In this document: positions 764-7,917 of the stretch, one piece after another
How positions within the stretch are numbered: the first letter of the stretch is position 1
Layout of the letters: every line of letters begins with the position of its first letter
Origin: a virus
Taxonomy: Duplodnaviria > Heunggongvirae > Uroviricota > Caudoviricetes
Length of the DNA stretch: 8,591 bases
Strand: one strand, 5' to 3'
Virus record (IMG/VR): IMGVR_UViG_2547132417_000018
Notes under the pieces: generated by a model
The model's input: only the letters and a program-made list of their open reading frames with translations
Databases searched by the model: none
What the model was told of the DNA's origin: nothing
Translations under genes and position numbers: made by a program

Positions 764-1024
764 TTAATTCTGAGGTAAAGGCAAACTCATCTGATTGTTT
801 CCCCTGTGTGAAGCTGGCAGCTCATGCCACGGAATACCTTCTGATGAGTGAACGCCGGAGGCGTGTTTCGATGTGAATTTATGGAAGGCTTCCAGTGTTG
901 AGAAGCATACGCCGCATTCTAGGTTGTTACACTGGTAATACTTTTGCCGCACGGTGTTTGAATCATTTTCCGGACGACTGGTGCGGATACGGGCAGATGC
1001 GCCACAAAGCGGACAACGGAACAT
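764..1024 (-). CDS. ogr: Ogr/Delta-family zinc-finger late-gene transcriptional activator (86 aa)
   Basis: N-terminus MFRCPLCGASARIRTSR...YYQCNNLECGVCFS matches the P2 Ogr Cys4 zinc-finger pattern (MFHCPLC...RTSR...YHQCQNVNC). Strong SD AGGGAGG 5 nt upstream of the ATG. About 14 residues longer at the C-terminus than the 72-aa P2 Ogr. Confidence 0.85.
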   Translation of the reverse strand: MFRCPLCGASARIRTSRPENDSNTVRQKYYQCNNLECGVCFSTLEAFHKFTSKHASGVHSSEGIPWHELPASHRGNNQMSLPLPQN

Positions 1025-1066
1025 AGCGACCTCCCTTAACGTGGTGCTGCCGCTATTCTAAGTTCT

Positions 1067-2176
1067 TCACTCTGTTTCCGCTATCCATTCCGGGATTTTT
1101 GCCTCAAGCTCAAGCTGTGTGGTAAAGCCGCTGTTATCAATGGTGTGCTCAGCTTTTGCAATAATCCAGTCCTGATTGTCGATGTCACTTTTGAAGCCTT
1201 TCACCGTGCCATGCATTTCGGGATAGAGTTCTGCGCGTCCACGCGCCAGCGTGATGGAGAATGATGCGGCTCCGCGTTGTAGCTGCTGCCATTTTGCCGC
1301 TGCTGCGCGTCTTGCTGCCTGCTCGTTCTGATAAGTCTTGCGTAACACAAACACATTGCCTTCTGCGCCTTCCATATAATCACCTTCACGGCTGCTGCTT
1401 TTCTCCTTTTTGGGTTTTGGCGGTTTGCGGCGTTTCACGCTGACTTTTTTCTTTTTCCCGTAATTAAGATCAAGCCAGTAAGCGCGTACCCCCGTATACG
1501 CCTCGCGGTCAGCAATGCGGAACTGATGGCGATCGCCGCTGCTGCGTGTGATGGCGAACGATGGCAACGGCTGGCCCTGTGCGTTCACGCCACCGCCGGG
1601 CATGATGAATAACAGATTACCGCTTTTTACCGTGGTGATTGCGCCCAGCATTTCCGCCATGCGCGTAAGGAAGGACATGTCACTTTCTTCGGTCTGGTCG
1701 GCGTGGTCGATTTCGATATCCATCAGCATTTCGCTGATTTGCGGTTTCAGACCATACCGATGAGCGATGGCGGATACCACTCGCTCAACGGTCACATCAT
1801 GCCAGGACACCTCACGTTTAACGTTAAATTCATCCCGAAAATCTGCGCTTCTGGCTGAAACCGTCAGCCTGTTCGGCGGTCCTTCGTGAGCGATTTCATC
1901 AACAATGTAAGTGCCTTTTTCTGTCAGCGGTTCTCCTTTCCAGCCAATGAGAACCGTCAGGCGCGCGCCCCGTGGCGGTAGCTGCAACTGACCATCCGCA
2001 TCATCCAGCGTGATGGTGAGCTGGTCCGCTTCAAATCCCCGGTTGTCAGTCAGTGACAGACTCATCAGGCGCTCTGCCACGCCGGACAGCGTTTCCCCCT
2101 CCGCGAGAATATCAAAATCCGGCATTTTCACGGGGTCTGTGCTCTGACTGAGCAATTGCATGGTGGTGTCGGTCAT
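1067..2176 (-). CDS. D: P2 gpD-like tail protein (late control D protein), 369 aa from the SD-supported start
   Basis: Track ORF 1067..2197 is collinear with P2 gpD in sequence, with conserved blocks LSLTDNRGFEADQL, ITLDDADGQ, SWHD, NFLTR, KVSVKR, YMEG-EGNV, RLQRGAA-FSI and LYPEM. The in-frame ATG at 2176 is preceded by AGGGAGG with a 5-nt spacer; the upstream ATG at 2197 has no SD, so 2176 is preferred. Confidence 0.9.
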   Translation of the reverse strand: MTDTTMQLLSQSTDPVKMPDFDILAEGETLSGVAERLMSLSLTDNRGFEADQLTITLDDADGQLQLPPRGARLTVLIGWKGEPLTEKGTYIVDEIAHEGPPNRLTVSARSADFRDEFNVKREVSWHDVTVERVVSAIAHRYGLKPQISEMLMDIEIDHADQTEESDMSFLTRMAEMLGAITTVKSGNLLFIMPGGGVNAQGQPLPSFAITRSSGDRHQFRIADREAYTGVRAYWLDLNYGKKKKVSVKRRKPPKPKKEKSSSREGDYMEGAEGNVFVLRKTYQNEQAARRAAAAKWQQLQRGAASFSITLARGRAELYPEMHGTVKGFKSDIDNQDWIIAKAEHTIDNSGFTTQLELEAKIPEWIAETE

Positions 2177-2332
2177 CTTTCCCTCCCTGTGCGGCATGGT
2201 CGCATGTGCGTGCGGAGTGGGTTACTGCTTTTTGTTGTCGCCGTGGCGGGAGAACGGCGCAGGGGTGAGATTACGCGCGTGGTGGGTGATGATTGTTGCC
2301 GAATCATTTAACGGATACAAGGGGCTGAAGCT
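2177..2332. promoter_or_regulatory. Divergent intergenic region between D (leftward) and FI (rightward), presumed late promoters, with a central dyad
   Basis: 156-bp noncoding gap between two divergently transcribed late operons. Contains a perfect inverted repeat CGCCGT (2239-2244), 9-nt spacer, ACGGCG (2254-2259), preceded by TTTTTGTTGT. The canonical P2 TGT-N12-ACA Ogr box was not found by eye. Confidence 0.3.
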
Positions 2333-5818: not shown

Positions 5819-7416
5819 CTGACCTTTATAAAGCCACCCGCAAATACGGAGAAGTTGATCGGGTATCGTTCTTTAAGGACATTGCCGGAGAAGAGGCTTT
5901 CACATCATTTATGGCCCTCGTTGATGCGGCAGGTGACGGATCCTTACCTAAACTGAGAAAAGAACTTGAAGGCGCACGCGGTGAGGCTGAACGCACGGCA
6001 AAGGTTATGGCCAACAACCTTGACGGCGATCTGAAATCACTCGGCAGTGCATGGGAAGGGTTGCGCATCCGCATTGCAGATCTGATTGACGGTCCGCTGC
6101 GTTCTGTCACGCAGTGGCTCACGCGGGTGGTATCAAAGGTGACGGCGCTGGCGCAGGCCCATCCGGCACTGACGCGCCAGCTACTGATTGCAGGTGGGGC
6201 GTTGCTGGCGATGACTGCAACGGTCGGCTCGTTGTCGCTGGCTATTGGTGTGCTTGCTGGCCCGCTGGCAAAACTGCGTCTTGGCTTTTCCCTCCTGACC
6301 GGATCAATGAATGCTGTCAGGCTCCTGCCAGCACTATGGGGAATGGTGACGGGTTCCGTTTCGTTACTGGGGGGCGCTATCGGGGCGCTGTTCAGCCCGG
6401 TCGGATTGATTGCTGCTGCGTTTGTGGCTGCGGCGGTTCTCATCTGGAAATACTGGGAACCCATCAAGGCGTTTTATGCAGGGGTGTTCAGTGGGATTAT
6501 GGAACGGCTGGCTCCGTTGCGCGAAACCTTTGAACGGTTCGGTCCTGTTTTTGATGTCGTGCGCGATGGGATTATTCAGGTCTTTAACTGGTTTAAATCG
6601 CTGCTGTCACCGATGGAGTCCGGCAAGGAAACGCTGGATAAATGTACCAGTGCTGGCGAGGTATTTGGCAGGGTACTCGGTGGAGCGATAGAGCTTGTCC
6701 TGACGCCAACAAAAGCATTGATGGATTCACTGGCGTGGATACTTGAAAAGCTCGGAGTGCTTCCGGATGAAGCGGAACGGGCGAGAAAGAAAATCGAAGA
6801 CGCACAGCGAGCGGCCATTCTTCAGGACAAGGTTGCCTTGCTTCAGGGGGACCTGGCGAAAATCAATCCGCCGAAGCCTGTGGAAAATGGAAATGGCTCC
6901 GGAGGTGATAAACCCAAAGACAACAAACCGCTCACAGACAACAATACCGGTACGCTACGCAGGCTCAGCAAAATTGCTGATAACACAGGTAAGCTGGTTG
7001 ATGAGACGAAAAAACGTATTGGCCCCGGCGATATTGTCTTTAAGAACCTGCCCCGCGCACTTGCCGTTCGTGGGGAGTGGCAGGAGCGGAAGATTCCGCA
7101 GGTCAGTAAGCCTGCCCCCGCAATTAATATCACCCCCGTGGTTCCGGCTCCGCTGCCTCCGGCGCTGGTCCCTGTTGTTGCGGCCAGCTCCCGCCCGGTG
7201 GCGGAGGCTATACGATCGCCAGTGGCATCAGTTCCTGCAACTTCCCGTAACCGGGAGCCTGTTGCCTCCGGATTTGGCGGTGAAATTCATGTTCATCTGC
7301 ATAACGTTGTTACGCAGAATCCCCGCGAACTGGCGAAACTGGTTGGCGAAATGGTCAGGGCAGAAATGGAACGGCGCGCCCGTGCCGGGCGTGGCAGTTT
7401 TTACGATAAAGACTGA
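5794..7416 (+). CDS. T: Tail tape measure protein (P2 gpT-like), C-terminal fragment; same gene as 4610..5818, disrupted by a 1-nt frameshift
   Basis: Frame is open from 5782 and reads RGGKMRPMEDLLTDLYK..., continuing the upstream ...LKELGVSVSDAG. Contains the Gly/Ala-rich hydrophobic segment and Pro-rich C-terminal region typical of myovirus tape measures. Combined length is about 930 aa. Confidence 0.82.
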   Translation: MRPMEDLLTDLYKATRKYGEVDRVSFFKDIAGEEAFTSFMALVDAAGDGSLPKLRKELEGARGEAERTAKVMANNLDGDLKSLGSAWEGLRIRIADLIDGPLRSVTQWLTRVVSKVTALAQAHPALTRQLLIAGGALLAMTATVGSLSLAIGVLAGPLAKLRLGFSLLTGSMNAVRLLPALWGMVTGSVSLLGGAIGALFSPVGLIAAAFVAAAVLIWKYWEPIKAFYAGVFSGIMERLAPLRETFERFGPVFDVVRDGIIQVFNWFKSLLSPMESGKETLDKCTSAGEVFGRVLGGAIELVLTPTKALMDSLAWILEKLGVLPDEAERARKKIEDAQRAAILQDKVALLQGDLAKINPPKPVENGNGSGGDKPKDNKPLTDNNTGTLRRLSKIADNTGKLVDETKKRIGPGDIVFKNLPRALAVRGEWQERKIPQVSKPAPAINITPVVPAPLPPALVPVVAASSRPVAEAIRSPVASVPATSRNREPVASGFGGEIHVHLHNVVTQNPRELAKLVGEMVRAEMERRARAGRGSFYDKD

Positions 7417-7422
7417 GGAGTC

Positions 7423-7917
7423 ATGGCCATGATGATGATCTACGGCATGTTTGTTTTTGAGCTGCGCACATTGCCGCATCAGCAGTTACAGCAAAACAAA
7501 AGCTGGCGGCATGTGAAAAATGAACGCGTTAACCGTTCAGCAAGCTGGCAGTATATCGGTGCAGGTGATGATCGCATCGTGCTTTCAGGCGTGCTTTATC
7601 CTGAAATTACAGGTGGCGAAGTGTCGCTGTCGCTGCTGACCACGCAGGCATATACAGGACGCCCCTGGCCTCTGATTGATGGCGTCGGGCAGATTTACGG
7701 CATGTATGTCCTGACCGAAACGAGTACGACCCGCTCTGAATTTGATCGCTACGGTAAGGCGAAAAAAATAGAATTTTCACTGACCCTTGAACGCTGTGAT
7801 GAGGATTTGCGGGAGCGCCTGCAATCCTCATCGTTCAGCGATATGCTGTCCGGCTTCAAAGATAAAGTGACATCATCTCTTAACAGCGCGGCCAGTTCAG
7901 TTAAAGGGCTGTTCTGA
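7423..7917 (+). CDS. U: Tail protein U (P2 gpU-like), 164 aa
   Basis: Immediately follows T, as in P2. N-terminus MAMMMIYGMFVFEL resembles the P2 gpU N-terminus. An SD GGAG is upstream; the in-frame ATG at 7429 is an alternative start. Confidence 0.88.
   Translation: MAMMMIYGMFVFELRTLPHQQLQQNKSWRHVKNERVNRSASWQYIGAGDDRIVLSGVLYPEITGGEVSLSLLTTQAYTGRPWPLIDGVGQIYGMYVLTETSTTRSEFDRYGKAKKIEFSLTLERCDEDLRERLQSSSFSDMLSGFKDKVTSSLNSAASSVKGLF

Follow-up and report, generated by a model that had tools for sequence, protein, structure and literature searches.

Probable ancient inversion of the FI-U tail genes in a clade of P88-like prophages, with a predicted Ogr site shared by the two resulting operons

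The viral record IMGVR_UViG_2547132417_000018 (Caudoviricetes) includes a stretch of 8,591 nucleotides, hereafter called the window, which carries the tail genes of a P2-like phage in an order that differs from that of P2 itself. Judging by its sequence, the window comes from a P88-like prophage (genus Xuanwuvirus, family Peduoviridae), of which it forms the right end. The assignment to Xuanwuvirus follows from nucleotide identity and synteny with phage P88, and applies to this 8.6-kb end alone. The genes at the centre of the present analysis, with positions counted from the first nucleotide of the window, are:

764-1024, minus strand: ogr, encoding an Ogr/Delta-type zinc-finger late activator of 86 amino acids (Pfam Ogr_Delta, E=5e-14)
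1067-2176, minus strand: D, encoding the tail/baseplate hub protein gpD of 369 amino acids (Pfam Phage_GPD), divergent from FI
2177-2332, no strand: D-FI divergent control region of 156 bp, read from the sequence and conserved across relatives
2333-3517, plus strand: FI, tail sheath (Pfam Phage_sheath_1, Gp18_domIII_N and Phage_sheath_1C)
3517-4029, plus strand: FII, tail tube (Pfam Phage_tube, E=1e-45)
4085-4623, plus strand: E/E' tail assembly chaperone pair, E occupying 4085-4459 (weak Pfam Phage_TAC_7 match)
about 4610-7416, plus strand: T, tape measure protein (Pfam PhageMin_Tail), interrupted in the window
7423-7917, plus strand: U, tail protein gpU (Pfam Phage_P2_GpU, E=3e-39), last gene of the inverted block
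7946-8533, minus strand: serine DNA invertase of the Gin/Hin family (Pfam Resolvase and HTH_7), in the flank and outside the inverted block

By gene content (FI, FII, E/E', T, U, D and an Ogr/Delta activator) this is a P2-like (Peduoviridae) contractile-tail module. All genes but E' have Pfam matches, and the products share 32-48% identity with their P2 orthologues (45% for FI, 48% for D and 36% for Ogr). The Ogr translation, read by eye, shows the cysteine pattern CX2C-X24-CX4C. The gene order is another matter. In P2, according to its RefSeq record, a single strand carries FI FII E E' T U D ogr, and the D start overlaps the U stop, whereas the window lacks this colinear arrangement. D and ogr are found upstream of FI on the opposite strand, beyond a gap of 156 bp, while U is followed by the convergent invertase gene, the two stops being 28 bp apart (7918-7945). 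On each of these points, including the order in P2, the open reading frames (ORFs), the Pfam matches and the P2 record agree with a preliminary description of the locus. The D start is the ATG at 2176, which is preceded by GGAGGG and is also the start used in the records of P88 and Citrobacter phage Shae_phiSM; ogr follows 42 bp downstream of D. The invertase probably starts at the GTG at 8533 (VLIGYVRVS...) and not at the upstream GTG at 8560.

The same order is found in close relatives. Thirteen phage records match 85-96% of the window (at least 80% as one place) with 93-96% DNA identity and an identical gene order. They include Escherichia phage P88 (94.9% identity over 96% of the window), Xuanwuvirus P884B11 and Shae_phiSM (96.2%), P88 and Shae_phiSM each aligning as one colinear piece. 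The latter two, both members of Xuanwuvirus, share with the window gene order, orientation, the D-FI spacer (97% conserved), both junction sequences and the terminator between U and the invertase; their Ogr and D proteins are 99-100% and 96-98% identical to those of the window. They differ from it in having an intact T gene, which carries a 1-bp deletion in the window, and in lacking its leftmost 312-360 bp. Chromosomal copies are abundant: 1103 of 5426 complete E. coli genomes contain one colinear match spanning at least 80% of the window, and the top full-length matches are E. coli chromosomes (96.6%). P88 can be induced, and on E. coli K-12 PhiSM (Shae_phiSM) forms both lysogens and plaques (PMC6456863), so the order is functional and permits virion production. 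The preliminary description had presented a notable rearrangement of this locus. The synteny comparison, showing the same order in intact, plaque-forming relatives, makes it lineage-typical instead; the locus is an unremarkable copy of a prophage type that is common.

The P88 genome shows which segment has changed orientation. Written in the orientation of the P2 map, it reads ...V W J I H G, then an invertible tail-fibre segment and the invertase (+), followed by U T E' E FII FI (-), D (+), ogr (+) and hok. Both flanks, tail fibre/invertase on one side and D-ogr-int on the other, keep the P2 orientation and FI-U alone is flipped. Of the two possibilities initially proposed, inversion of FI-U or relocation of D-ogr, the former is thus retained and the latter is less parsimonious because both flanks of P88 keep the P2 orientation. 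The block appears to have been inverted in place, since the FI-U proteins of P88 (31-47% identical to those of P2) have diverged from P2 to the same degree as the head, baseplate, D and int products (36-61%). The H protein is an outlier at 76% (L001, 22562-24856), its baseplate neighbours being only 44-61% identical. This similarity indicates a more recent exchange of a receptor-binding module between the P88 and P2 lineages.

The distribution of the inverted order extends well beyond Xuanwuvirus. A search with the D protein identified a group at 62-73% identity in other genera recognized by the International Committee on Taxonomy of Viruses (ICTV). A D alignment was then used as query to find 80 chromosomal loci, one genome per species, whose order was classified by tblastn, the orientation survey comprising 87 loci in all. 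Wherever D is at least 60% identical and both genes could be scored, U..FI lies opposite D-ogr (all of about 65 loci). Wherever D is at most 53% identical, the locus is colinear, P2 and Wadgaonvirus included. The inverted loci occur in Salmonella, Edwardsiella, Symbiopectobacterium, Serratia, Erwinia, Pantoea, Enterobacter, Kosakonia, Klebsiella, Raoultella, Xenorhabdus, Photorhabdus, Providencia, Morganella, Yersinia, Hafnia, Brenneria, Pectobacterium and other hosts. Three named phages, Salmonella phage SEN5 (Senquatrovirus) and the Klebsiella phages Kp4871-3 (Reginaelenavirus) and Kp4848-1 (Reipivirus), resemble the window in their inverted FI-U block next to D-ogr and in the dyad of the D-FI spacer described below. 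However, their D proteins are only 62-73% identical to that of the window and the fetched loci contain no invertase match; in SEN5, U converges directly on a tail-fibre assembly gene.

Neighbour-joining trees were built for D (64 inverted and 16 colinear loci) and FI (66 inverted and 16 colinear loci). Each groups the inverted loci in a single clade with zero colinear members, on stem branches of 0.10 and 0.15, respectively. The more distant Ralstonia phage RSA1, a Pseudomonas Citexvirus and Vibrio phage VP58.5 are all colinear, which makes the colinear order ancestral and the inverted state derived. The simplest account of these data is a single ancient in-place inversion inherited by a large clade. 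The inverted order is a fixed, ancient character of this clade, which includes at least Xuanwuvirus, Reginaelenavirus, Reipivirus and Senquatrovirus of Enterobacterales, and most likely arose once. The ancient inversion and the lineage-specific architecture offered as separate options in the preliminary description are effectively one, borne out by all relatives with D at 60% or more, by the exclusive D and FI clades and by the colinear outgroups. The colinear order is a mark of the P2 map but not of Peduoviridae as a whole, since the inverted one is shared by four ICTV genera of the family. A search of the available literature found no published description of the inverted block, and publications on P88, PhiSM and SEN4/SEN5 make no mention of an inversion or of gene order; the arrangement can nevertheless be seen directly in public annotated genomes.

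Alignment of the D-FI spacer across the four genera exposed a conserved core. The elements recognized there, together with the hairpin at the other end of the block, are:

2234-2255, no strand: candidate Ogr-type activator dyad GTTGT-N12-AGAAC, centred at 2244.5 (motif match; TGT-N12-AGA at 2236-2253)
2288-2293, plus strand: predicted -10 element of the FI late promoter (P_F), GATGAT, whose centre is 46 bp from that of the dyad
2196-2204, minus strand: putative extended -10 element of a D-ogr promoter, TG-C-GACCAT (hexamer at 2196-2201), centred 46 bp from the dyad centre
7921-7962, both strands: hairpin preceded by an A-run and followed by a T-run, a predicted bidirectional intrinsic terminator (inverted repeat, terminator scan and folding)

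The consensus of the Ogr-dependent late promoters of P2 is TGT-N12-ACA (PMC3931495). P_F and P_O of P2 themselves carry TGT-N12-CCA. The perfect consensus is present in the SEN5 and Kp4871-3 spacers, while Kp4848-1 shows TGT-N12-AGA like the window. With 0.12 matches expected in the 35.8-kb genome of P88, the degenerate pattern GTTST-N12-ASAAC has three, and two of these fall in the FI/D and P/O spacers. The third exact match lies inside T; it was taken as a chance occurrence and is not conserved in the window. A third dyad was also sought upstream of the P88 R-S-V genes, where the region offers just a site with one mismatch inside a lysB-like gene.

Direct local alignment of the three candidate late-promoter regions of P88 was uninformative, while anchoring on the dyad worked. 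A total of 54 distinct spacers of the clade, with a non-redundant subset of 27, were anchored gap-free in this way. Within the dyad, TGT is kept in 96% of the sequences and A.A of the right half in 100%, the N12 spacer being 43% identical. On the FI side, nAnnAT occurs at one exact offset in 98% of the 54 sequences. On the D side, it occurs at the exact offset in 72% of them (67% in the non-redundant subset), compared with a median of 0 elsewhere, and TG is found two bases upstream of the hexamer in 70%. Colinear phages, used as a control, have the same dyad and the same FI-side -10 at the same offset but no conservation on the other side of the dyad. The start site of P_F is annotated in P2, where the -10 lies at the same offset from the dyad as in the window. 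A GC-rich block, GCGCGCG, is also conserved on the D side of the spacer and resembles the CGCGCGCG block found between the P and O genes of P88.

This symmetric geometry has a counterpart in the divergent terminase and scaffold promoters. P2 has its annotated P and O start sites at a distance of 55.5 bp on either side of a single activator site, and its -10 hexamers at 46 bp; P_P and P_O share one central dyad, TGT-N12-(A/C)CA, with a -10 about 46 bp away on each side, a spacing also seen in the D-FI spacer of the window. In phage Smp131, P_P' and P_O' were also placed on one site (PMC3931495). The terminase/scaffold (P/O) spacer of P88 (L001, 14152-14305) contains the dyad GTTCT-N12-ACAAC at 14214-14235 and -10-like hexamers 46-47 bp on each side, the CGCGCGCG block adjoining the leftward one. 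P2 has no divergent promoter between D and FI, and the function predicted for this design in the window derives from its conservation. Since the geometry of the spacer is that of P_P/P_O in P2, D-ogr probably gained late expression from the activator site of the inverted P_F.

The block and its flanks would then form three transcription units, FI-U rightward, D-ogr leftward and the convergent invertase. According to this scheme, the inversion would have placed the P_F promoter and its dyad-symmetric Ogr site beside D. The site, being symmetric, could activate in both directions, and with the -10 located 46 bp away on the D side a second late promoter, called P_D, would arise. Both FI-U and D-ogr would thereby be driven by a single central Ogr site, as the divergent P_P and P_O are in P2. 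From the -10 positions alone, transcription is predicted to start near 2300 (+) and 2189 (-), the latter giving D a leader of 13 nucleotides that would carry the GGAGGG motif. The ogr gene would probably be co-transcribed with D and would as a result lie downstream of an Ogr-activated promoter. In P2, ogr is transcribed by read-through from D. The gene content, its order and distribution, the monophyly of the inverted loci and the conserved spacing of the motifs are established directly; we infer Ogr binding, the two start sites and D-ogr co-transcription from the arrangement of these motifs and genes.

The hairpin beyond U, at 7921-7962, overlaps the 3' end of the invertase gene and has folding energies of -16.8 and -16.7 kcal/mol for the two strands (z = -4.2 and -3.3). 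It could terminate both the U and the invertase transcripts. The gene set is orthologous to that of the late F operon of P2, which also has an activator of the Ogr family. However, D closes the P_F operon in P2 and its start overlaps the U stop, whereas in the window D is the first gene of a separate leftward unit and the terminator after U is common to the invertase. Anatomy and comparative conservation both support the earlier statement that D is uncoupled from the sheath-tube operon. They also support the existence of a divergent promoter region, although it cannot be called new as first proposed, its design being old and conserved. A sigma-70-like site, GTGACA-16-GATTAT (9/12), is present at 1188-1161 (-) in the 3' end of D, 137 nucleotides upstream of ogr, and could be an activator-independent promoter of ogr. 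The ogr gene of P2 has its own promoter, within a longer D-ogr gap.

Taken as a whole, an ancient, clade-wide FI-U inversion in a P88-like prophage, with expression from a shared Ogr site, is the best explanation of the locus, with a probability of roughly 0.8. Its more specific component, promoter capture by the inversion, appears somewhat better than an even bet: the inversion would have been tolerated and then fixed because the Ogr site is symmetric, a second, leftward promoter needing just a new -10 element 46 bp away.

Several observations weigh against this explanation. The perfect consensus TGT-N12-ACA has no match anywhere in the window, the right half of the dyad reading AGA instead of ACA. 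About 28% of the clade members are without a clear nAnnAT at the exact D-side offset, and conservation among related sequences overstates independent support. The promoters, their start sites and their dependence on Ogr in the clade are predictions. The trees are distance-based, without bootstraps and rooted on P2, and the survey was limited to 80 genomic loci and is biased toward Enterobacterales. The original breakpoints of the inversion are not reconstructable, and the ribosome site and leader of D must have been remodelled after the event since the D start overlaps the U stop in P2.

Four alternatives may be considered, the first being an assembly artefact. A misjoin at 2177-2332 or 7918-7945, the true order being that of P2, has nothing in its favour and a negligible probability: the 13 independent phage records and the 1103 complete E. 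coli genomes run colinearly across the two junctions with 93-98% identity, the junction sequences are conserved, and the signals they carry (the dyad with two -10 elements, the bidirectional terminator) are coherent. The artefact that the preliminary description had allowed for is thereby refuted, intact phages such as P88 and Shae_phiSM having the same order. A recent inversion of this locus by the Gin-like invertase, acting on pseudo-gix sites or inverted repeats and perhaps still switchable, is suggested by the position of the enzyme gene, which abuts the block. Gin-type invertases invert DNA between inverted crossover sites, and the invertase of the window is a close homologue of Gin, its DNA being 93-97% identical to gin of Mu and D108 over 8181-8591. 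However, the segments served by Gin, Hin, Cin and Pin (such as Mu G and P1 C) are bounded by crossover sites, while the ends of the FI-U block have none. No gix- or hix-like site was detected in the window (full Mu gix or degenerate core, up to 3 mismatches), and the inverted repeats that were to be sought at the two junctions yielded none pairing them, the sole relevant repeat being the local hairpin at 7921-7962. Close relatives show a single orientation, the opposite one appearing in none of the approximately 65 clade loci nor in the 1103 E. coli genomes. Most inverted loci (SEN5, the Klebsiella phages and about 50 genomic loci) have no invertase match in the fetched locus and, conversely, colinear relatives with an invertase exist: in the Wadgaonvirus Escherichia phage 500465-1 (D 53%) the invertase is followed by colinear FI..U D ogr, and a Mixta locus (L069) has the invertase at the same place yet is colinear. 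A recent, invertase-driven event is therefore very improbable. The invertase is a neighbour from the tail-fibre switch and not the agent of the inversion, and the FI-U block, despite a serine invertase beside it (7946-8533), is not an invertible segment and gives no sign of switching. The P88 copy of the invertase flanks alternative tail-fibre genes, and a gix-like site, TTCCTGTAAACCGAGGTTTTAGATAA, is found directly upstream of its gene (L001, about 26915-26940), in a region that would fall just past the window end at 8591.

Two alternatives remain. FI-U might have been imported from another myovirus and inserted in reverse. P2-like genomes are mosaic, and the H protein of P88, at 76% identity against 44-61% for its neighbours, attests to a recent exchange nearby. 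Replacement of the module is nonetheless improbable: FI, FII, E, T and U (31-47% relative to P2) are comparable to D (50%), head (36-47%) and int (46%), FI and D identities fall in parallel, both trees give the same split between inverted and colinear loci, and the dyad and -10 geometry of P_F is the same as in colinear relatives. It may also be that the inversion is ancient but that D-ogr depends on an independent, constitutive or early promoter, the conserved left half of the spacer serving another purpose. In favour of this unlikely possibility, the D-side hexamer is accompanied by an extended -10 TG, which can support activator-independent transcription; the ogr promoter of P2 and the conserved GCGCGCG block on the D side point in the same direction. 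Against it, the exact 46-bp symmetry about the dyad reproduces the P/O geometry of P2 and P88, D encodes a structural protein of the virion and in P2 is part of the Ogr-dependent F operon, and the 68 bp between the dyad centre and the D ATG leave no room for another activator site.

T is the sole irregular gene of the window. Compared with P88 and Shae_phiSM, in which it is one contiguous ORF of 935 amino acids, it lacks 1 bp between 5783 and 5784, and this deletion breaks it into two ORFs (4574-5818 and 5794-7416). The identities assigned to all genes in the preliminary description agree with the ORFs and Pfam matches, but this split had been missed. The frameshift either makes the prophage copy defective in tail assembly or is a sequencing error, and has no bearing on gene order. 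In E, a candidate -1 slippery heptamer, A_AAT_TTT, is located at 4402-4408, 17 codons 5' of the stop, and the -1 frame, as read from the sequence, is open over 4468-4623, past the E stop. Together they may represent the frameshift expected of an E/E' chaperone pair, the slippery site being putative. The annotation of E. coli UPEC132 has a GpE family coding sequence at the corresponding position.

Two further genes are found between ogr and the left limit of the window:

1-282, plus strand: small ORF of 93 amino acids with no Pfam match, a hydrophobic, signal-like N-terminus and several cysteines
about 442-582, minus strand: hok/gef-type toxin gene (ORF list, Hok/Gef family), between ogr and the prophage end

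A gene of the Hok/Gef family is also present near ogr in P88 and in E. coli UPEC132. In UPEC132 the equivalent prophage end adjoins tamB-ytfP, the small ORF lying between ytfP and hok. The leftmost 312-360 bp of the window, which include this ORF, have no counterpart in the phage records, although some E. coli chromosomes carry them next to the prophage, and the ORF may be prophage-end cargo or host DNA. Hairpins at 319-346 (both strands) and 401-424 resemble terminators. An Rfam scan of the window gave no match at gathering thresholds, including no Sok-type RNA beside hok.

P88-like prophages with this order are carried by about a fifth of complete E. coli genomes, and the order should not be flagged by annotators or prophage callers as misassembly or prophage decay. 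The orientation of FI-U relative to D provides a binary marker separating Xuanwuvirus, Reginaelenavirus, Reipivirus, Senquatrovirus and many unnamed prophages from P2, 186 and phages of the Wadgaonvirus type. The conserved dyad with its symmetric -10 elements leads to a testable prediction of how late control was rewired after an operon was split. If true, promoter capture would be of moderate interest to specialists of phage regulation: the shared-site design of P_P/P_O would have been re-created elsewhere in the genome and would define a large clade within Peduoviridae.

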